Source of the DNA: an uncultured Streptomycetaceae bacterium
GTDB lineage: Bacteria > Pseudomonadota > Gammaproteobacteria > Burkholderiales > SG8-41
Direction: 5' to 3'
NCBI GenBank assembly: GCA_964365845.1
Contig: CAYIRZ010000002.1
Span: forward strand, 10,240 to 42,952
DNA length: 32,713 nucleotides
The first letter of the stretch is position 1; each line of letters starts with the position of its first letter. Below, in pieces: positions 3,429 to 32,632 of the stretch. The position numbers and the translations under genes are program-made. Below the pieces are notes generated by a model. It was given only the letters and a program-made list of their open reading frames with translations. It was not told the DNA's origin and ran no database searches.

Positions 3429-4826
3429 GTGAGCAATAAAGACAAATCCAGCGGCAACCCAAAGCCGTGGTCGGGGCGGTTCGTTGAACCGGTGACCGAC
3501 CTCGTCAAGCAATTCACTGCGTCGGTCACCTTCGATCAGCGCCTGGCCGAGTTCGACATCGAGGGCTCCATCGCCCATGCGCGCATGCTTCATGCCGTCG
3601 GCATCCTCGCCAAGGACGATCTCGGCGCCATCGAGAAAGGTCTGGCGCAGATTCTGGACGAGATCCGCGGCGGCAGCTTTCCGTGGTCGATCGATCTCGA
3701 AGATGTGCACCTCAACATCGAACGGCGGCTGACCGATCTCGCCGGCGACGCCGGCAAGCGCCTGCACACCGCGCGCTCCAGGAACGACCAGGTGGCAACC
3801 GACGTGCGGCTTTACCTGCGCGCCTCGATCGACCACGTGCTGACGCTGATCAAGTCGCTGCAGCGCGCCCTGCTCGACCTTGCCGATAAGCACACCGAGA
3901 CCGTGATGCCGGGCTTCACCCATCTGCAGGTCGCGCAGCCGGTATCGTTCGCCCATCACCTGCTCGCTTATTTCGAAATGCTCACGCGCGACGCCCAGCG
4001 ACTTGCTGAATGCCGCAAGCGCGTCAACAAGCTGCCGCTCGGCGCGGCTGCCCTTGCCGGCACCTCATTTCCGATCGACCGCCTGATGGTGGCCAAGGAA
4101 CTGGGGTTCGACGGCGTATGCGAGAACTCGCTCGATGCCGTGTCCGACCGCGACTTCGCGATCGAATTCTGCGCCGGCGCCGCGCTGGTGATGACGCATC
4201 TGTCGCGTTTCTGTGAGGAATTGATCCTGTGGATGAACCCGCGCTTCGGCTTCATCGACATTGCCGACCGCTTCTGCACCGGCTCGTCGATCATGCCGCA
4301 GAAAAAAAACCCCGACGTGGCGGAACTGATTCGCGGCAAGACCGGGCGCGTCAACGGCCACCTGGTGGCGCTGCTGACGCTGATGAAAGCGCAGCCGCTC
4401 GCCTACAACAAGGACAACCAGGAAGACAAGGAGCCGCTGTTCGACACCGTGGACACGCTGATGACGAGCCTCGCGGTGTTCGCCGAGATGCTGGGCGGCA
4501 TCAAGGTCAATCGCGACGCAATGCGCGCGGCGGCACTGCAGGGCTATGCCACCGCCACCGATCTCGCCGACTACCTGGTCAAGAAAGGCGTGCCGTTCCG
4601 CGAAGCGCACGAAGCGGTGGCGCAGGCGGTGCGTTTTGCGGAAACGCGTGGCTGCGGCCTCGCCGACCTCAAACTCTCCGAACTGCAGCAGTTCTCGCCG
4701 CTGATCGGCGAGGACATATTCGAAGCGCTGACCCTTGAAGGCTCGTTGGCCAGCCGCAGCCATATCGGCGGCACCGCGCCGGCGCGGGTGAAGGCAGCGA
4801 TCGCCAAGGCGCGCAAAGGGTTGTAA
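3429..4826 (+). CDS. argH: argininosuccinate lyase
   Basis: 465 aa with a GTG start. Fumarate-lyase superfamily signatures: WSGRF near the N-terminus, [53 protein letters not shown]. Confidence 0.95.
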
Positions 4827-4838
4827 TAGCCAAGAGCA

Positions 4839-5002
4839 TTAGCCGCCGATGAATTCTTCTCAATACCTTCTTTTCAACACCCCCTTGAGGGGTGCGCTTG
4901 ACGGGTACGCCGATAGATTCTTCTCAATACCCGTTCTTTTTAATACCTTCCTTTCAACACCCGCTTGACGGGTGCGCTCGACGGGTACTTGACGGGTACG
5001 CC
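4839..5002 (+). repeat. left arm of the islet-flanking repeat: two tandem units of a ~72-nt hairpin (REP/MITE-like) element
   Basis: Unit 1 is 4839-4911: TTAGCCGCC..TTCTTTTCAACACCCCCTTGAGGGGTGCGCTTGACGGGTACGCC. Unit 2 is 4912-5002, an expanded version. Each has a 6-bp stem CACCCC/GGGGTG; unit 2 reads CACCCG/CGGGTG. The reverse complement matches 8082-8153. Confidence 0.85.
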
Positions 5003-5152
5003 GATGAAAACCCAAGGGTGCGCAGCCAAAGAGCACGGTATCATCGTAACATATTGTTTTATTTGTATTTTTATCTGTCGTAGGTCGGCAATCCTTTGCC
5101 GACAATAAGTAGCGGCGGCATCGCGCCCAAACGCTCAGAACTTTCCTTATGG

Positions 5153-5181
5153 TTGCACCCTATACGCTTGCCGCGTATAGT
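5153..5181 (+). promoter_or_regulatory. sigma70-like promoter TTGCAC-N17-TATAGT with an embedded inverted-repeat operator, upstream of the higB-like gene
   Basis: TTGCAC is at 5153-5158 and TATAGT at 5176-5181. A perfect inverted repeat CTATACGC-TTGCC-GCGTATAG (5160-5180) fills the spacer and the -10. The higB ATG at 5189 is 8 nt after the -10 and has no Shine-Dalgarno. Confidence 0.5.
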
Positions 5182-5188
5182 TAGAGCA

Positions 5189-5509
5189 ATGGTCTTTGTC
5201 GAGCTCACGCCGTTCATCGCTTTTCGTGCTGAGCACTGGAGCGACGAGGATTTGCGTAGCTTGCAAAATTTTTTGCTTGCAACGCCAGACGCAGGCGATG
5301 TCATCCCAGGCGGTTCCGGTTTGCGCAAGCTGCGCTGGTCTGCACAAGGGCGGGGCAAGCGGGGTGGCGCAAGGGTGATCTATTACCGGCATGTGCCGGG
5401 AGAACGCATCTACCTGATTTACGCTTACGTTAAGAGTGCGCAGACTGACCTGACCCGCGAGCAGATCAAAGCGTTGGCACAACTAATGAAGGATACGAAG
5501 AATGGATAA
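5189..5509 (+). CDS. higB: type II toxin, RelE/ParE superfamily, HigB-2-like
   Basis: I trimmed the ORF 5096..5509 to the ATG at 5189 (106 aa). Sequence: MVFVELTPFIAFRAEHWSDEDLRSLQNFLLATPDAGDVIPGGSGLRKLRWSAQGRGKRGGARVIYY...IYLIYAYVKSAQTDLT. This matches the HigB-2 pattern (GGLRKxR...GKRGGxRxIYY). The toxin-first order and 8-nt overlap with the antitoxin are typical of higBA. Confidence 0.8.
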   Translation: MVFVELTPFIAFRAEHWSDEDLRSLQNFLLATPDAGDVIPGGSGLRKLRWSAQGRGKRGGARVIYYRHVPGERIYLIYAYVKSAQTDLTREQIKALAQLMKDTKNG

Positions 5510-5792
5510 GCAACATTTCGACCAACTAGTCAAAGGTGTGCGCGAAATGAAGCGCCATATGACAGGCAAATCCGTGCGTGGCGTAAGAACGACCGAACTG
5601 CCTGCGCCTGACGTGCGCACCATCCGCGAGGCGGCCAATATCAGCCAGAGCCAGTTCGCGAAATTGATTGGCGTAAACCTGCGCACGCTGCAAAACTGGG
5701 AGCAGCAACGCACGCAGCCCAGCGGGCCCGCCAGGGCGCTGCTCAAGATCGTTGCTTCAAACCCGAAGGCGATTGAGGCGTTGCATGGGTAA
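5502..5792 (+). CDS. higA: type II antitoxin, XRE-type helix-turn-helix, HigA-2-like
   Basis: 96 aa. HTH segment: IREAANISQSQFAKLIGVNLRTLQNWEQQRTQPSGPARALLKIVASNP. It resembles HigA-2 (SQSKFA...LRNWEQGRRxPTGPAKALL). It overlaps the toxin gene. Confidence 0.8.
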   Translation: MDKQHFDQLVKGVREMKRHMTGKSVRGVRTTELPAPDVRTIREAANISQSQFAKLIGVNLRTLQNWEQQRTQPSGPARALLKIVASNPKAIEALHG

Positions 5793-5799
5793 ATCTGAA

Positions 5800-5829
5800 T
5801 TGCCGCCTCATGCGGCGCCCGGTTATCAT
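5800..5829 (+). promoter_or_regulatory. possible promoter TTGCCG-N18-TATCAT for the antitoxin/PIN pair
   Basis: The hexamers are at 5800-5805 and 5824-5829. A strong RBS, AAGGAGG, lies 7 nt before the ATG at 5911. This is weak, sequence-only evidence. Confidence 0.25.
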
Positions 5830-5910
5830 GTGGGGGTCGTATTTCAAATGTGCGCCACCGCCTAAAAGCAGGCCACCAGTGACCCGGCTGGTTCTTAAGG
5901 AGGTTATACC

Positions 5911-6159
5911 ATGACAACGATTCAGATCGAGTTGCCTGATGCGACCGCGAATGCCGCGCGCGATGCCGGGCTACTCACGCCGCACGCGCTGGAGCGGCTG
6001 ATCAACGATGCGCTTCGACGCAAGCAGGCGGCCGACTCGTTGCTGTCCATTGCCGACCGCGTGGCCGCCGCCGGTATCCCGCCGATGTCGATGGAAGAGA
6101 TCAACGCGGAGGTGACGGCCGCACGCGCAGAGCGCAAACAGCGTGCGGGCGGTCATTGA
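5911..6159 (+). CDS. putative antitoxin partner of the PIN toxin (small acidic/helical protein, family not assigned)
   Basis: 82 aa. A consensus RBS AAGGAGG lies 7 nt upstream. It overlaps the downstream PIN gene by 17 nt. Its size and position are typical of a type II antitoxin. Confidence 0.6.
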   Translation: MTTIQIELPDATANAARDAGLLTPHALERLINDALRRKQAADSLLSIADRVAAAGIPPMSMEEINAEVTAARAERKQRAGGH

Positions 6160-6562
6160 TACGAATGTGCTGCTGTCCGGGCTGCTGTGGCGTGGCGCGC
6201 CGTATGCGCTGATTGAGCATGTGCAGGCTGGCACGCTCGCCATGGTCAGCAGCCCGGCGCTGTTGGCCGAACTGGCCGAGGTGATCAGCCGCGCAAAGTT
6301 CGATGCGATCCTGGCGCGCTCGAACACCTCGCGCGAGCGCTCCCTGGATGAGATGCGCCAAATGGCCGAAGTGATCGTGCCGCCGCCGTTGCCACAACCG
6401 GTGTGCCGCGATCCCGACGACGATCACGTGCTTGCATGCGCCCTGGCCGCTAAGGCCGATCTCATCGTTACGGGCGATGCCGACCTTCTCAATCTGCGCG
6501 AGTATCAGGGTATTCGCATCGTCGCCGCCGTCGAGGCGCTACGCCTCATCGAGCGCGCCTGA
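6143..6562 (+). CDS. PIN-domain toxin (stand-alone PIN family of the VIDTNVLxS type)
   Basis: 139 aa with a GTG start. Sequence: MRAVIDTNVLLSGLLWRGAPYALIEHV...SPALLAELAEVISRAKF...DPDDDHVLACALAAKADLIVTGDADLL. The acidic PIN residues are in the expected order (DTN, E, D, TGD). Confidence 0.8.
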   Translation: MRAVIDTNVLLSGLLWRGAPYALIEHVQAGTLAMVSSPALLAELAEVISRAKFDAILARSNTSRERSLDEMRQMAEVIVPPPLPQPVCRDPDDDHVLACALAAKADLIVTGDADLLNLREYQGIRIVAAVEALRLIERA

Positions 6563-6588
6563 GAGCGTGCAATTATCGGAAGGTCAAG

Positions 6589-6741
6589 ATCAGCCAGAGC
6601 CAGTTCGCGAAATTGATTGGCGTAAACCTACGCACGCTGCAAAACTGGGAGCAGCAACGCACGCAGCCGACCGGGCCCGCCAGGGCGCTGCTCAAGATCG
6701 TTGCTTTAAACCGGAAGGCGATTGAGGCCTTGCACGGATAA
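6589..6741 (+). pseudogene. 5'-truncated second copy of the higA 3' half
   Basis: 153 nt align with 5640-5792 with 8 mismatches (manual alignment). The frame is preserved: ISQSQFAKLIGVNLRTLQNWEQQRTQPTGPARALLKIVALNRKAIEALHG*. There is no N-terminal third, no ATG and no partner toxin. Confidence 0.8.
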
Positions 6742-6898
6742 ATCTGGCCTGTCTCCGATCGAGCGAAACGTGGCTAGTCTCCAAAGGCGCTCCAAGTATA
6801 ATTTTCCGGAAATGTGACCCGTGATGACTATACAAGGGCGGGAAAACGCAGCGATGGGGGCGGAAGGATGAAGGCCCCTAAAGGATACATTTCATTTA

Positions 6899-7942
6899 AT
6901 GAAGGATGAGCGCGGAGAGGTGATGCAGCTCGAATTCCTTGGGAAGCTGCAGCGCATCCTGAACGAAGGCCAGTTCACGGCGAGTTACAAGTACGCGCTG
7001 ATACTCGCAATTGCCGAGTTGAGCGTTGAAAAGACCAACTGCGAAGACGGCAGCCTGCATCTGCCACTCGAAGAAATCGCGGATCGCTTCATCGGGCTCT
7101 ACTGGCGGCAGGCGGCGCCGTTCGCCGGCAGATCTTTCCTCCACCAGAACGCAGGCCAACAGGCAAGTGTCGTTACAAAGATCCGAGGATTACAGGGGCG
7201 CGTGCCGACACTGTCTGCAGCTCGCCGTCATCGAGAGTGGCCTACGCTGGTTCGCTCGATCGCGCGCTTGCTGGTTCAAATGCCGCTGTGGAGGCTGCAG
7301 CGCGTTGGCGCTGACAAGCTGGATTTCCTTTACGAGGAGACGATCATCGATGAGGGGATTGTTCTGCGCCCCGGCATCGCCGACTGCTTCCGGCAACAGT
7401 TCACCGTGGTACAGGCGCTGGTGCAGATGGTGTGGCTGTCATTCATCCAGCGGCTCCCGGCTAATCGCCCAGTGCTGGGATCTACAGGGGATCTCGCCGA
7501 TTTTCTTTTCGGGAGTGAGCGGAGCGGACTCTCGGCCATCGTTAGCGGGCTGCGCGACCTGCAGAACGGCGAGTGTTTCTACTGCCAGGGACGCCTGCAG
7601 CAGACGGTCGAGGTGGACCACTTCATCCCCTGGTCACGCTATCCGCGCGATCTCGGGCATAACTTCGTGCTCGCGCATGGCTCATGTAATCAGGACAAGC
7701 GCGACATGCTTGCCGCTCCGGTACATCTCGCGCGCTGGGTCGAGCGGAACGACAACGATAACGCTGCGTTGCGGCAGATCTTCGACGAAGCCCGCTTCAT
7801 GTACGACACGGACGCGTCGCTCACTGTCGCCGAGTGGTCCTACGACACCGCTGAGCGGTCAGGCGCGCTCGTGTGGGTCCAGAAGAGAGGGCAAACCGCT
7901 CGGCTCACGCCGGAGTGGCGGCGGCTGTTCCTTGCCGTGTGA
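6899..7942 (+). CDS. HNH (His-Me finger) endonuclease-domain protein with an unassigned ~225-aa N-terminal domain
   Basis: 347 aa. An alternative start is the ATG at 6923, preceded by GGAGAGG. HNH motif at residues 226-267 (nt 7574-7699): CFYCQGRL...VEVDHFIPWSRYPRDLGHNFVLAHGSCNQDKRD. I recognise no family for the N-terminal part (QFTASYKYALILAIAELS...). Confidence 0.75.
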   Translation: MKDERGEVMQLEFLGKLQRILNEGQFTASYKYALILAIAELSVEKTNCEDGSLHLPLEEIADRFIGLYWRQAAPFAGRSFLHQNAGQQASVVTKIRGLQGRVPTLSAARRHREWPTLVRSIARLLVQMPLWRLQRVGADKLDFLYEETIIDEGIVLRPGIADCFRQQFTVVQALVQMVWLSFIQRLPANRPVLGSTGDLADFLFGSERSGLSAIVSGLRDLQNGECFYCQGRLQQTVEVDHFIPWSRYPRDLGHNFVLAHGSCNQDKRDMLAAPVHLARWVERNDNDNAALRQIFDEARFMYDTDASLTVAEWSYDTAERSGALVWVQKRGQTARLTPEWRRLFLAV

Positions 7943-8081
7943 TATGGATGCTTTGACGGCTCTTAGCAGCCCTGAAAGAGCTGTGAGTCATAAAGTCGCG
8001 AGATCGTAAGAGGATTTTCCTTCGCCCTCCCGCGCTCACGCTCTCCCGTCCTCAGTTATTTTTTGTTTTTCTTGGCGCCTT

Positions 8082-8153
8082 GGCGTACCCGTCGAGCGCA
8101 CCCCTCAAGGGGATGTTGAAAAGAAGGTATTGAAAAGAAGCCTTGGCGGCTAA
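8082..8153 (-). repeat. right arm of the islet-flanking repeat (inverted copy of 4839-4911)
   Basis: The reverse complement reads TTAGCCGCCAAGGCTTCTTTTCAATACCTTCTTTTCAACATCCCCTTGAGGGGTGCGCTCGACGGGTACGCC. The outer 9 nt are identical to the left arm. The 44-nt core differs at 2 positions. Confidence 0.85.
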
Positions 8154-8187
8154 ATGGGGTTCAACACACATTTTCTATGGCGGGCGC

Positions 8188-9240
8188 TCAGATCGACAGT
8201 TTCTTCTCCAGTCCGGTTTCGCGGGCAATGCGCTTAAGATCGGCGCATGTATCCCCGGGCAACGCCAACCCTTGCTTGCGATTTTCCGCGTCGTTGCGCG
8301 CTTCCATCTCGCCCGGATAGAAAATTTCATCGCAGCCCTTGGCGAGCGGCACCGATTTCAGTTCGCCGATGAACGCCTGCATGCGCTGGTGAAACTGCGC
8401 CAGCGGCTGAAATGCCTCGATGTTCATCGCGATCATCATGTGTCCGCAGTTGCTCTTCTCGGCGGTCTTGTAGGGGCTGCGCACGGCGGACAGAAAGCCG
8501 CTGCCGGTCAGCACGCCGGACATCATGTCGACCATCGCCGCAATGGCGTAGCCCTTGTGTCCGGCCATCGGCAGGATGATGCCATCGATCGCTTCCTGCG
8601 GATCGGTGGTGGGCTCGCCCGCCGCGTTGATCGCCCAGCCTTCCGGGATGGGCTGGCGCTTGTTGCGGGCAAGATAGATCTTGCCGCGCGCGACGCCGGT
8701 GTTCGCCATGTCCACGCAGAATGGCGGAAGACTCCCGGCCGGTGCCGCGATAGACCACGGATTGGTACCGATGATTTTCTTGCGGCCGCCCCAAGGCGCC
8801 ATCGCCGGACCGCCGTTGCTGGTGAGCAGCATCACGCAGCCCTCGCGCGCGCCCGCCATCGTGTAATACATGCACGTGCCGAAGTGGTTGGAATTGCGCA
8901 CGCCCACAGCGCCTATGCCGTGTGTCTTCGCGCGCTTGACGGCTTCCCGCATGGCAAGCCGCGTCAGCACCTGTCCGACACCGTCATGACCATCAATCAC
9001 CGCGATCGCGCCGGCATCGACCACAAACTCGGGCTGCGTCACAGGCTGCATCACCCCGTTGCGCAAGCGTTCCCAGTACCAGCCGAGGCGCAGTACGCCG
9101 TGCGACTGATGCCCCCACAGGTCGGCCTGCACCAGCGTATCGGCGAGCAGGCGCGCATCGGATTCGGGCACGCCCTCGCCGGCATACACTGACGCCGCGA
9201 AATCGACAAGGCGCACCGGATCAATCAGGGATGTCGTCAT
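8188..9240 (-). CDS. Ldh_2-family (malate/L-lactate/L-sulfolactate-type) NAD(P)-dependent 2-hydroxyacid dehydrogenase
   Basis: I trimmed the track ORF 8188..9363 to the ATG at 9240 (350 aa): MTTSLIDPVRLVDF...LWGHQSHGVLRL...VRNSNHFG...GTNPWSIAAP...MANTGVARGKI...PMAGHKGYAIA. The 41 upstream codons run into a LacI pseudogene fragment and are Arg/Cys-rich noise. Confidence 0.8.
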   Translation of the reverse strand: MTTSLIDPVRLVDFAASVYAGEGVPESDARLLADTLVQADLWGHQSHGVLRLGWYWERLRNGVMQPVTQPEFVVDAGAIAVIDGHDGVGQVLTRLAMREAVKRAKTHGIGAVGVRNSNHFGTCMYYTMAGAREGCVMLLTSNGGPAMAPWGGRKKIIGTNPWSIAAPAGSLPPFCVDMANTGVARGKIYLARNKRQPIPEGWAINAAGEPTTDPQEAIDGIILPMAGHKGYAIAAMVDMMSGVLTGSGFLSAVRSPYKTAEKSNCGHMMIAMNIEAFQPLAQFHQRMQAFIGELKSVPLAKGCDEIFYPGEMEARNDAENRKQGLALPGDTCADLKRIARETGLEKKLSI

Positions 9241-9268
9241 GATTTCAGTCGCTTCCCATCGCTCACGA

Positions 9269-9420
9269 TTAAAAATGTAGGGTCGGGACCGCGGGCGCCG
9301 CCGTCGTGCCGCGCACGACGAGTTCGACCGGCAATTCGGTCCGCAGCGGCACGGTATCGCCATTCAGTCGCGCGAGCAAGCGCAGCGCGGCTTAGTCACC
9401 AAGTTCGGCGGCGGGGAAAC
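9269..9420 (-). pseudogene. 3' fragment of a LacI-family regulator paralog (in-frame stop, N-terminus missing)
   Basis: Minus-strand translation: FPAAELGD*AALRLLARLNGDTVPLRTELPVELVVRGTTAAPAVPTLHF*. It aligns with the C-terminus of the intact LacI-family gene at 10787-11815: FPTTELGAYAAHHLLSRLTGKSVDLHTELPVELVVRGTTAPPPQ*. Confidence 0.75.
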
Positions 9421-9422
9421 GT

Positions 9423-9509
9423 CAACGCACGCAGCCCACCGGGCCCGCCAGTGTGCTGCTCAAGATCGTTGCTTCAAACCAAAAGGCGATTGAGGCGTTG
9501 CACGAATAA
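9423..9509 (+). pseudogene. third, shorter 5'-truncated copy of the higA 3' end
   Basis: 87 nt align with 5706-5792 with 8 mismatches: QRTQPTGPASVLLKIVASNQKAIEALHE*. It directly abuts the LacI fragment (junction 9420/9421). Confidence 0.75.
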
Positions 9510-10786: not shown

Positions 10787-11815
10787 CTACTGCGGCGGCG
10801 GCGCCGTCGTGCCGCGCACCACCAGCTCCACCGGCAACTCGGTGTGCAGGTCCACGCTCTTGCCCGTTAGCCGCGACAGCAGGTGATGGGCGGCGTAGGC
10901 GCCGAGTTCGGTGGTCGGGAAATGCATGGTGGTCAGCCCGGGCGTCATCAGCGACGCGATTTCCATGTCATCAAAACCGGTGATCGATACCTGCTGCGGG
11001 ATGGTAATGCCCTGCGCGTTGCATTCCGCCATCGCGCCGATCGCCAGCACGTCGTTGCCGCAGATCACGGCGGTCGGCAGCGCATCCCCGATCATGACTT
11101 CGCGCAAGCCTTCACGCCCGGCGGACAGCGTGAACGGCTTTTCCACGATGCGCGCAGCCGGAAGCCGCGCGCCGCGCGCGGCGATCGCTTCGCGCACGCC
11201 CTCACGCCTTTCCTTGGCGCGCTCGTTGTTGGCGGTAATGCCGGAAATCATCGCGAACTCGCAGTGCCCGAGATCGAGCAGATAATTGGCAAGACGGATT
11301 GCCGCCGTGCGGCTGTTGAAACCGACACAGGGATGCCGGCCGCTTTCATCCAGCGCCCAAGTGAGCACGTACGGGATCTGGTGCGACTCGATTGCCCGGA
11401 ACACGCTCGGGTCGTGCGTCGTGCCGAGCAGCACCAGGCCGTCGATGCCACGCTCGATCAGCGCGCGCGTCGCGCGCACTTCGACGTCGGCATTGAACTC
11501 GTGGGACGCCAGCAGCAGCATGTAGCCGGCCTCGTCCAGCGTCTTCTGCAAGGCGTGAATGGTGTTGGCGAATATTGCGTTGTTGAGCGTCGGAATCACC
11601 GCGCCGATGGTGCGGGTACGCCGCGAGGCGAGCGCGCGCGCCGCACCGTGCGCGACATAGCCCAGCGTCTGCACTGCCTGCCGCACCCGGCTCAGGGTGA
11701 GCGGCTTCACCTTGTGCGGTACCGTCAGCGCCCGCGACACCGTCGCGGTGGAAACCTTGGCGAGCCGCGCCACGTCGCTCAGTTTTGCGGTCTTCCTGGG
11801 CGTATTTTTCTTCAC
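10787..11815 (-). CDS. LacI-family transcriptional regulator
   Basis: 342 aa. N-terminal HTH: KLSDVARLAKVSTATVSRALTVPHKVKPLTLSRVRQAVQTLGYVAHGAARALASRRT. This is followed by a periplasmic-binding-protein-like sugar-binding fold. Confidence 0.9.
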   Translation of the reverse strand: MKKNTPRKTAKLSDVARLAKVSTATVSRALTVPHKVKPLTLSRVRQAVQTLGYVAHGAARALASRRTRTIGAVIPTLNNAIFANTIHALQKTLDEAGYMLLLASHEFNADVEVRATRALIERGIDGLVLLGTTHDPSVFRAIESHQIPYVLTWALDESGRHPCVGFNSRTAAIRLANYLLDLGHCEFAMISGITANNERAKERREGVREAIAARGARLPAARIVEKPFTLSAGREGLREVMIGDALPTAVICGNDVLAIGAMAECNAQGITIPQQVSITGFDDMEIASLMTPGLTTMHFPTTELGAYAAHHLLSRLTGKSVDLHTELPVELVVRGTTAPPPQ

Positions 11816-13989: not shown

Positions 13990-14298
13990 TCAGCCCTGCA
14001 GCATTTTCTTCAATTCACCGCTCTTGTGCATCTCGGTCAGAATATCCGAGCCGCCGACGAACTCGCCATTGACATAAAGCTGCGGAATGGTCGGCCAGTT
14101 GGCAAATTCCTTGATGCCCTGGCGGATTTCCGGTTCCTCGAGCACGTTGACCGAGAAAAATTCGTTGACGCCACAGCCGCGCAGAATGCTCACGACATTG
14201 GCCGAAAATCCGCACTGCGGAAAATCAGGCGAGCCTTTCATATACAACACAACCCGGTGCTGGGTGACTTGGTCTTTTATAACGTCTTGAATACTCAT
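13990..14298 (-). CDS. grxD: monothiol (Grx4-type, CGFS) glutaredoxin
   Basis: 102 aa: VVLYMKGSPDFPQCGFSANVV...WPTIPQLYVNGEFVGGSDI. CGFS active site. Confidence 0.95.
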   Translation of the reverse strand: MSIQDVIKDQVTQHRVVLYMKGSPDFPQCGFSANVVSILRGCGVNEFFSVNVLEEPEIRQGIKEFANWPTIPQLYVNGEFVGGSDILTEMHKSGELKKMLQG

Positions 14299-17822: not shown

Positions 17823-17865
17823 TTTCATTTCAGGAGTTCGTCGGGGCTAAGTCCGACAAACTCCT
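17823..17865. repeat. REP-like hairpin element, copy 1 (TTTCATTTCAGGAGTTCGTCGG-GGCTAAGT-CCGACAAACTCCT)
   Basis: This 43-nt element differs at 2 positions from 21771-21813. It has a 12-bp stem (one mismatch here) and an 8-nt loop. It overlaps the stop codon of the dehydrogenase gene. Confidence 0.8.
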
Positions 17866-18859
17866 AAGCGGAGCGTTCGTTCAGCAGCGTCTCGCCCCGC
17901 GCCCACCTGGCCAGATTGGTGAGAAACACTTCAGCGGCACGGTGCTCGTTGCCGGCCGAGGCCGAAGCGTTATGCGGCGTGACGAGCACATTGGGCAAAT
18001 CCCACAACGGCGAATCGGACGGCAGCGGCTCCTTTTCGAACACGTCGAGGTAAGCGCCGCCAAGATGCCCGCTTTGCAACGCATCGGTCAGCGCTTGCTG
18101 GTCGGCAACACCGCCGCGTGCAACATTGATGATATGGGCGCCCTTGGGCAATAAGGCAAGGGTCCCGGCATTGACGAGATGCCGCGTTGCGGCGGTGAGC
18201 GGACAGGCGAGCACCAGCCAGTCGCAGCGCGGCAACACTTCGGGCAGCGCCGCGAGCGTATGCATTTCATCGACCGGATCGCCGGACTGCATGGGACGCC
18301 GGCGCACGCCGATGACGTGCATTCCCAGTGCCTGGCAGAAGCGCGCCACGGTCGCCCCTATCGTCCCCAGCCCGATGACGGAGACGGTTTGCCCGCGCAG
18401 ATCCCTGGGTACCGCGGAGCCGCGCATCGGCTCCCAGGCGCGGCGGCGTTGCGCGTCTATCCAGCGCGGAAATCCGCGCGCGAGCATCAGCAGGCCGCAA
18501 ATCGCGGTCTGCGCCACCGGCTCGCCGTTAGTGCCGGCCGAGGTGGTGAGCCTGACACCGCGCTCGATCAACGCCGGCAGGAAAGGATGCTGATCGATGC
18601 CGGTGCTGACGAAATGCACCCATTTGAGATTGCGGGCGGCGGCGACCGCGGCGCCAAAACCGTGATAATGCTCCGAGAAGCGGATATCGCGCGTGAGATA
18701 GGCGATCCCGATACGCTCGCAATCCGCGGCTGAAAGCCGGCCTCGGGGATCGTCGGGAAGGTGGACGATGTCGGTTTGGAGTCCAGCCTGCCGCGCGGCG
18801 GCGGCAAGCCTGTCGCCGTAATTGGCGGCGAATCCCTGCGACAGCAGCATGCCGGTCAT
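17864..18859 (-). CDS. D-isomer-specific 2-hydroxyacid dehydrogenase family, NAD-binding
   Basis: I trimmed the track ORF to the ATG at 18859 (331 aa); GGAGG lies 6 nt upstream. It has the Rossmann motif VIGLGTIGATVA and the catalytic-region motifs NVARGG, LDVFEKEP, TPHNAS. The upstream 44 codons read through the heptamer and REP repeats. Confidence 0.85.
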   Translation of the reverse strand: MTGMLLSQGFAANYGDRLAAAARQAGLQTDIVHLPDDPRGRLSAADCERIGIAYLTRDIRFSEHYHGFGAAVAAARNLKWVHFVSTGIDQHPFLPALIERGVRLTTSAGTNGEPVAQTAICGLLMLARGFPRWIDAQRRRAWEPMRGSAVPRDLRGQTVSVIGLGTIGATVARFCQALGMHVIGVRRRPMQSGDPVDEMHTLAALPEVLPRCDWLVLACPLTAATRHLVNAGTLALLPKGAHIINVARGGVADQQALTDALQSGHLGGAYLDVFEKEPLPSDSPLWDLPNVLVTPHNASASAGNEHRAAEVFLTNLARWARGETLLNERSA

Positions 18860-21720: not shown

Positions 21721-21813
21721 AGCAGCCTGTCGGACTTGGCTCCATTCGCCGGAACCCGTAGCGTTAGTGCTTTCATTTTAGGAGTTTGTCGGGGCTAAGT
21801 CCGACAAACTCCT
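21721..21813. repeat. composite REP-like cluster: AGCAGCCTGTCGGACTTGGC...element (21721-21763) plus hairpin element copy 2 (21771-21813)
   Basis: 21781-21812 is a perfect 12-bp stem GGAGTTTGTCGG / CCGACAAACTCC with an 8-nt loop. The reverse complement of 32589-32632 matches 21721-21763; the first 20 nt are identical. Confidence 0.8.
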
Positions 21814-21898
21814 ACCAAAACGATAGCATGAGGGAAGACATTCCGCTAATCCGGCGGCAATGGCATAATCATGGGTCTATCTCACGATCCGGACTCAT

Positions 21899-32588: not shown

Positions 32589-32632
32589 GCGTACCCGTTC
32601 CGGTGAATGGGGGCCAAGTCCGACAGGCTGCT
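32589..32632 (-). repeat. REP-like element, inverted copy of 21721-21763
   Basis: The reverse complement reads AGCAGCCTGTCGGACTTGGCCCCCATTCACCGGAACGGGTACGC. Its first 20 nt are identical to 21721-21740. It shares GCGTACCCGT with the islet-flanking repeat. Confidence 0.7.

Follow-up and report, generated by a model that had tools for sequence, protein, structure and literature searches.

We analysed a stretch of 32,713 nucleotides (hereafter the window) from contig CAYIRZ010000002.1 of assembly GCA_964365845.1, which comes from a groundwater metagenome and belongs to an uncultured betaproteobacterium. Downstream of argH, the window carries a variable islet with a predicted toxin-antitoxin (TA) module of the HigBA2 type. 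The 3' end of its antitoxin gene, higA, occurs three times in the same orientation within 4 kb, once as part of an intact gene and twice as a 5'-truncated remnant. This is probably an eroding TA cluster, in which one working higA and two dead remnants were reshuffled by insertion, recombination, and deletion. The copies of higA and the features that adjoin them are:

5120-5188, plus strand: promoter and putative operator region of higBA, with the palindrome CTATACGC-N5-GCGTATAG at 5160-5180
5189-5509, plus strand: higB, toxin of the RelE fold (PF06296, E-value 3.3e-7, 31 bits against a cut-off of 27), intact, overlapping the start of higA
5502-5792, plus strand: higA copy 1, intact, 96 aa, HigA-2-type, HTH_3
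5798-6581, plus strand: module V, with a promoter-like site (5800-5829), an antitoxin-like gene (5911-6159, 82 aa) and a PIN_3 toxin gene (6143-6562)
6578-6746, plus strand: higA copy 2, 5'-truncated pseudogene, residues ~45-96
6742-6821, plus strand: flank X, conserved, containing TATAAT and the palindrome TTTCCGGAAA
9284-9419, minus strand: 3' fragment of a LacI-family paralog, 5'-truncated and with an internal stop, aligning with the C-terminus of the LacI encoded at 10787-11815
9423-9509, plus strand: higA copy 3, 5'-truncated pseudogene, residues ~69-96

The protein encoded by copy 1 matches the HigA-2 chains of Vibrio cholerae (PDB 5J9I/5JAA) over residues 6-91, with E-values of 1e-11 to 3e-12. 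Judged by its sequence, the copy 1 operon is a HigBA2-type type II TA module, with the toxin gene first and a predicted Xre helix-turn-helix (HTH) domain at the C-terminus of the antitoxin. In the HigA-2 family the toxin is bound by the N-terminal part of the antitoxin, whereas the C-terminal HTH dimerises and binds DNA. The homology among the higBA modules of related loci (L001, L004, L013, and others; L numbers designate the loci and contigs used for comparison) begins at 5119-5122, and the palindrome at 5160-5180, upstream of higB, is the likely operator. Exact-protein look-ups found no identical HigA or ArgH proteins on record.

The three copies of higA are unmistakably related. When higA was searched against the window with BLAST, copy 2 was matched with an E-value of 3.7e-70 and copy 3 with 1.6e-30, the next best match having an E-value of 0.33, which excludes chance similarity. 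An earlier note on this DNA had counted eight mismatches in 153 nt between copies 1 and 2 (5640-5792 and 6589-6741) and eight in 87 nt between copies 1 and 3 (5706-5792 and 9423-9509), and our recount agrees. The rest of its description also holds. The homology between copies 1 and 2 includes the ATCTG that follows the stop codon (the ungapped alignment covers 5633-5797 and 6582-6746, at 94% identity), and all three copies are on the plus strand, in frame, with their TAA stop kept. Copies 1 and 2 enclose exactly the antitoxin/PIN pair of module V (PIN_3 E-value 1e-22), while the interval between copies 2 and 3 contains an HNH gene, the right arm of an inverted repeat (8082-8139), an Ldh_2 gene, and the 3' fragment of the LacI paralog. 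The divergence of the copies excludes, as the note had argued, a simple target-site duplication. We also rejected a tandem segmental duplication, because the sequences 3' of copy 1 and of copy 2 are unrelated past ATCTG.

The mismatches between copies 1 and 2 are unevenly distributed: 1 of the 80 nt in 5640-5719 differs, against 7 of the 73 nt in 5720-5792 (p = 0.028). Different alleles typically diverge by 11.7% and 15% in these two parts of the repeat (first 80 and last 73 nt). The repeats have therefore probably recombined, which suggests that the copies recombine with each other by gene conversion or crossover. The leftover repeats measure 165 nt and include exact blocks of up to 41 nt, which is sufficient for homologous recombination, and they may go on shaping the locus.

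Independent Logan contigs of the source run span, without differences, the junction between the end of higA and V (5756-6074) and the one between V and copy 2 (6137-6629), and the depths at these two junctions match (9.5 and 11.1). The junction between the LacI fragment and copy 3 is spanned in three runs. The region 5411-5660, in higB and higA copy 1, is uncovered at 97% or more by the Logan contigs of the best-matching run, X1, and is covered in run X2. One contig of X1 leaves the path of the window after 5792 and continues into other sequence, which implies that the sample holds a further higA copy in another context.

In copies 2 and 3 the N-terminal half of the protein is missing, which agrees with the earlier description of one intact higA and two 5'-truncated relics. 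What remains of them is altered at positions that are 94-100% conserved in 82 full-length homologs: S86L and P88R in copy 2, and R78S, A79V, and P88Q in copy 3 (P88 is invariant and A79 is 99% conserved). Copy 2 also lacks the first helix of the HTH and a good start codon. In the equivalent stubs of three relatives (L001, L004, and L008) the stop codon is lost.

Such stubs recur elsewhere. A scan of one genome per species identified 80 loci with a full-length higA, nearly all of them in uncultured Betaproteobacteria. Six of the 80 also carry a same-orientation, 5'-truncated higA 3' end, which lies downstream of the intact higA in five cases (L001, L004, L008, L031, and L049) and upstream in one (L051). 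The nine stubs start at different places in higA (residues 34, ~42-47, ~45, 60, 65, ~69, and ~70-72), and all extend to a few bases past the stop codon. The cargo between intact gene and stub is different each time and measures 0.4-2.5 kb (440 nt for the smallest): a PIN_3 pair, a HigB-like/HTH pair, an Xre gene, a ParE pair with a FitA/PIN pair, a Phd/PIN pair, or three metabolic genes. The loci that carry stubs are flanked by ordinary housekeeping genes. Complete copies may also be found together, e.g., two full higA copies 4.1 kb apart in L007 and, on the single contig of L061/L065, a pair of complete operons separated by 12.4 kb. In L031, a direct repeat of 149 nt (5096-5244 and 5563-5711, 83% identity) lies either side of the stub.

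The cargo enclosed by copies 1 and 2, module V, encodes a PIN_3 protein that has thousands of relatives. We delimited the module using contigs with close PIN_3 relatives and a metagenome scan for its left end. V is a discrete module of ~785 bp, with the same ends in at least nine other metagenomic contexts. Its left end, AATTGCC... (AATTGCCGCCTCATGCGG...), is a promoter-like -35 box, its right end is ...ATTATCGGAAGGT, and both are constant to ~2 nt (in L004, L081/82, L083, L084, the two copies of L085, L087-L090, and L092-L094). The flanks vary by context, with CTG or CTA before the left end, and V is nearly always found beside a higA. It follows higA at stop +8 in the window, L004, L083, and L092, comes after a higA reduced to 33 nt in L090, and sits as a clean insertion within the 3' end of higB in L081 and L093. 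A full-length higA lies 3' of V in L084, L081/82, L085, and one ENA contig; the L085 contig both starts and finishes in V. The segment 5800-6588 is present in some relatives and absent from others, as the earlier note had anticipated, with an empty site in L001, L002, and L008.

No mobility gene was found in V, and its termini have in common only a 6-nt inverted match, AATTGC, with a possible 3-4-nt repeat (GAT/TGAT) at the L081 insertion. Both ends share CGCCTCAT and have a short hairpin each. In L093 (reverse strand) the left V junction shows a 15-nt tandem duplication, GACGCTGGCACAACT. The candidate explanations for the sharp ends of V and higBA are selective trimming to a minimal addictive unit and mobilisation in trans. 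Since the left end of V is its own -35 box, selection for a minimal functional unit can explain why this end is sharp.

The origin of copy 2 is illuminated by L085, where the 3' end of V is followed by a full-length higA (from ~4-5 nt before the ATG) and then by X. The corresponding sequence of the window, from the 3' end of V through copy 2 to X, is colinear with L085 save for one gap of ~132 nt with CAAGA at its edges. L085 has this motif twice, immediately 5' of the ATG and at codons 45-47, and the junction in the window has a single CAAGA. A microhomology-mediated deletion of ~132 nt would convert the arrangement of L085 into that of the window. The higA of L085 is itself decaying, since it has a premature TAG. 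Complete higBA operons in relatives at the positions of the stubs were what the earlier note had named as evidence against its preferred reading. For copy 2 such evidence exists: it has a full-length higA counterpart between the same V and the same X, but no counterpart was found for copy 3.

Other relatives show further states of the same region. L004 has the higA|V and stub|X junctions in common with the window, but the L004 stub exceeds that of the window by ~30 nt, and V is broken off at 6207 and followed there by another TA pair, which indicates independent erosion of a common 'higBA - V - higA - X' arrangement. In L001, L002, and L008 the intact higA runs directly into X, i.e., the state without V. 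X follows a higA in L001 (9745-9825), L002 (1115-1194), L008 (10293-10366), and L085 (821-889), and a stub in the window and L004. Candidate roles for X are an outward promoter/operator and a small RNA; Rfam contains no match to it. We discarded X as a general cassette boundary because it occurs in the closest relatives only.

Copy 3 has a different neighbourhood. The LacI fragment, which is 75% identical to 10797-10922, ends at 9419 and copy 3 starts at 9423, i.e., 3 nt away. The two lie on opposite strands and both lack their 5' parts. Two divergent genes that are both 5'-truncated bear the signature of a single deletion. Such a deletion would have cost the LacI paralog its 5' part and higA its first ~205 nt, and would have removed higB and the two promoters.

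The loss of higB is frequent. Among the 78 full-length higA loci with enough upstream sequence, higB is intact in 48 and is absent, 5'-truncated, split, or interrupted in ~30; these loci were sampled via higA and the reverse loss is not countable. Orphan HigA-2-type antitoxins are common in these uncultured Betaproteobacteria. V, in which the antitoxin comes first, has lost sequence from its 3' end, where the toxin gene lies, in L004, L090, L093, and L094. Hence, erosion enters from the toxin side in both types of module. This is expected if a cell dies when it loses the antitoxin and keeps a functional toxin. The truncation of V at its 3' end in four contexts, and the 5' fragment of an orphan higA in L094, led us to reject any mechanism with a strict polarity in favour of 3' ends, e.g., one-ended transposition or reverse transcription. 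L094 (reverse strand) also contains a 38-nt repeat (1556-1593 and 2401-2438, 97% identity) that is a fragment of another gene.

These observations can be assembled into the following history. The islet after argH would once have contained three HigBA2-type modules, as well as the separate V, which was retained. The first higBA alone would have stayed intact, the other two being destroyed from the toxin (5') side. Copy 2 would descend from a full-length higA between V and X that lost its first ~130 nt by microhomology-mediated deletion, and copy 3 would be the remainder of the single deletion that joined the LacI paralog and a higBA. Only 3' stubs would survive because viable deletions enter through higB. 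Addictive modules would insert time after time, change places through homologous recombination between shared modules, and shrink to the smallest unit that still functions, and we propose that this is why module ends are sharp and orders are many. The order found in the window, with the intact higBA to the left of V, might have arisen when 'higBA|V' and 'higB|V|higA-X', both of which are found in the data, recombined either in V or in higB and V; this step is plausible but unproven. The earlier note had mentioned an alternative to its preferred reading, in which later insertions of cassettes truncated several higBA alleles, and our data support this option, with deletions as a further cause of truncation. 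A study of the decay of ccdO157 (Mine et al., 2009) is reportedly a close precedent.

Some observations fit this history poorly. All comparison sequences are metagenome contigs, and the position of copy 3 is not occupied by a full higBA in any relative found. Contiguity across V runs through a graph node of 122 nt that has a depth of 14, against 9.5-11 around it. Of the nine stubs, eight are found 3' of the intact copy, and the orientation is the same in all. The stub of copy 2 begins 1-5 nt from the right end of V, which is closer than an unrelated deletion would be expected to fall, and is only partly explained by the CAAGA repeat and by the location of V ~4-5 nt before the higA of L085. Finally, copies at the same locus are often each other's closest relatives (93.9% identity in the window, 97% in L007, 98% in L031 against 90.5% for the next best, and 93.7% in L049 against 89%), and local duplication or gene conversion therefore fits better than independent acquisitions.

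The kinship of copies within loci is one of the points that speak for homology-driven capture, an explanation we regard as rather unlikely. Here, a higA 3' piece with its cargo would enter a resident higA by RecA-dependent recombination, either by a Campbell-type single crossover or by homology-facilitated illegitimate recombination after DNA uptake. Capture would directly yield an intact gene, cargo, and a 5'-truncated duplicate, and a circle formed later from the cargo and one repeat could spread. The order it predicts, i.e., intact higA, cargo, and 3' stub, recurs in the window, L001, L004, L008, L031, and L049, with a constant right end (stop +5) and a variable left end. Both permuted orders are found, higA-V (L083, L092, and L004) and V-higA (L084, L085, and L081). 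The stubs are often closest to the intact copy of their own locus, the skewed mismatches between copies 1 and 2 indicate that the repeats probably recombined, and exact blocks of 41 nt suffice for RecA. Yet, a one-step origin has no need for the full-length positional counterpart that copy 2 has in L085, and copy 3 lies beside a truncated gene on the opposite strand, for which a single deletion is simpler. The stub of L051 is upstream of the intact operon, and L094 has a 5' fragment of higA. The contigs of four runs, which would not reveal rare forms, contain no joint skipping V and no circle junction.

We are equally doubtful of the broader idea that V and higBA-like modules are recombinase-free cassettes, for which the conserved 3' ends of antitoxin genes provide RecA with portable homology. 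If it were true, RecA would excise a circle made of the cargo plus one repeat and re-insert it into any genome with a similar higA. This would be a counterpart of integron cassettes that works without a recombinase, and the addictive nature of the cargo would guard against loop-out.

The earlier note had favoured another process, the serial integration of site-specific elements into the 3' end of higA, each carrying a replacement 3' end, with a recombinase that was lost or acts in trans. The same-orientation repeats do bound discrete segments, the homology stops at a constant point 5 nt past the stop, and relatives have an empty site, even if the latter is equally expected under other models. 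Nevertheless, our data make this process very improbable. The truncation points vary between residues 34 and 72 and leave no common core, a truncated LacI gene closes the interval from copy 2 to copy 3, and L085 has a full-length higA at the position of copy 2. The cargo, which may be as small as 440 nt and is set among housekeeping genes, consists of TA, HNH, Ldh_2, and metabolic genes and includes no recombinase. No integrase was found in the flanks of seven stub-bearing loci among the best 25 of 102 families. A site embedded in the gene should constrain synonymous positions, but synonymous diversity is 0.493 in codons 45-96 and 0.469 in codons 1-44 (p = 0.31), and there is therefore no embedded recombination site in the 3' half of higA. 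For the same reason, and because nothing matched in Rfam at E ≤ 1, we rejected any other embedded DNA or RNA element in this half of the gene. An integron was rejected as well, since a crude ungapped scan of the window between 4800 and 9600 and of 10 TA-rich loci, which could miss weak sites, found no attC-like pairs. Plasmid or phage carriers were not found at the DNA level.

It is also very unlikely that the arrangement is an assembly chimera, in which 'higBA-V' and 'V-stub-X' from different genomes or loci were joined through the multi-copy V or higA. Contigs bearing V are mostly 1-2 kb long and break at V, L085 has V at both ends, the 122-nt node in V is deeper than its surroundings (14 against 9.5-11), and one contig quits the path of the window after 5792. 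However, independent contigs cross the junctions on either side of V, and their depths agree (9.5 and 11.1), and L004, which comes from another sample and another assembly, has higA, a truncated V, stub, and X on one contig with unique sequence in between. The case of copy 3 is independent of the join at V.

Finally, retention of the stubs for a function, as a mini-HTH protein, a decoy that binds HigA, or a terminator or insulator behind the PIN gene, is barely credible: copies 2 and 3 did keep frame and stop, and the L004 stub has an ORF of 68 aa that starts at an ATG and spans the whole HTH, but invariant residues are substituted (P88R/Q, A79V, and S86L), stops are gone in three relatives, copy 2 misses the first HTH helix and any good start codon, the stubs have neither an Rfam match nor a terminator-like site, and the operator palindrome is upstream of higB, outside the stub.

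The remainder of the islet and its left border contain the following features:

3429-4826: argH, housekeeping gene to the left of the variable islet
4854-4911 and 4934-4988, plus strand: two tandem copies of a 58-nt dispersed repeat, left border of the islet, 95% complementary to 8082-8139
6899-7942 (likely start at 6926), plus strand: gene of an HNH-domain protein (HNH_4/HNH), a passenger of the islet
8082-8139, minus strand: inverted copy of the 58-nt dispersed repeat
8188-9240, minus strand: Ldh_2-family dehydrogenase, intact (E-value 3e-120)

The 58-nt repeat has an internal hairpin (CACCCC..GGGGTG), and its inverted copies flank the islet with the TA and HNH genes. Its depth in run X1 is ~10 times that of the neighbouring single-copy DNA, which identifies it as a multi-copy dispersed element resembling repetitive extragenic palindromes or miniature inverted-repeat transposable elements (MITE). 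The same run shows variant joints between copies of the repeat. We rejected the inverted repeat as the border of a mobile unit, because it is present in ~10-fold multiple copies in the sample and is missing from all related higBA loci. A second family of dispersed repeats, of ~44 nt and palindromic (AGGAGTTTGTCGG...CCGACAAACTCCT), is found between genes at 803-846, 17823-17866, 21771-21814, and 32610-32632, as well as in L004 (3040-3082), with 89-97% identity. The HNH protein has ~340 aa, of which the N-terminal 200 residues match no family; its similarity to retron-type HNH and to the HNH domains of Cas9/IscB is only sub-threshold. In L010, a higBA lies between homologs of window positions ~13992-14142 (L010 1-151) and the 3' end of argH (3816-3877), in the orientation opposite to that of the window. 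The two genomes may share a variable spot behind argH, but the synteny of L010 in this region was too weak for use.

The locus is a well-resolved instance of a known and already described process. It provides an example, at the nucleotide level, of the turnover of chromosomal TA clusters, in which sharp-ended modules are stacked and redundant copies are eaten away from the toxin side. It also carries a warning for annotation: the 3' stubs of antitoxin genes mimic the footprints of att sites, and repeats of a 3' end around a cassette need not mean an integrase.

Several known systems resemble the locus in part. The attL/attR duplications made by integrases that target tRNA or protein genes at their 3' ends also consist of an intact gene, cargo, and a same-orientation 3' duplicate, with an empty site in relatives. 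Here, by contrast, there is no integrase, fixed core, or constraint on the site, the cargo is 0.4-2.5 kb long, and one stub adjoins a truncated unrelated gene. Integron arrays and clusters of attC sites lacking integron-integrases (CALINs) share with these loci the short promoter-plus-gene units, the many TA pairs, and an order that varies by genome. They differ from them in that no attC was found here, some modules are on the opposite strand (L031 and L051), and junctions lie inside coding sequences. V resembles mobile insertion cassettes and MITE-like elements in its ends, sharp to ~2 nt, in having no transposase, and in its clean insertion into higB (L081/L093), but it has no convincing terminal inverted repeats or target-site duplication. 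The HigBA2 of V. cholerae also has a PF06296-type toxin gene first, followed by an antitoxin of ~100 aa with a C-terminal Xre-type HTH. It is an integron cassette with an attC site, whereas our crude scan found no attC-like site or integron integrase here.

The TA spots of Photorhabdus are a further point of comparison. In this genus TA systems cluster in small spots that result from repeated acquisition at the same place, only the toxin gene had become a pseudogene in 185 cases, against 8 in which only the antitoxin gene had, and remnants of TA genes without open reading frames (ORFs) are common (2026, Mol Biol Evol, PMC13617665). The islet after argH is similar in having TA pairs between housekeeping genes, reuse of the site, toxins lost first, and remnants without ORFs. 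It differs from these spots in belonging to an uncultured betaproteobacterium known from sequence alone, and in carrying three copies of one antitoxin gene within 4 kb, of which one pair exactly brackets another TA module.

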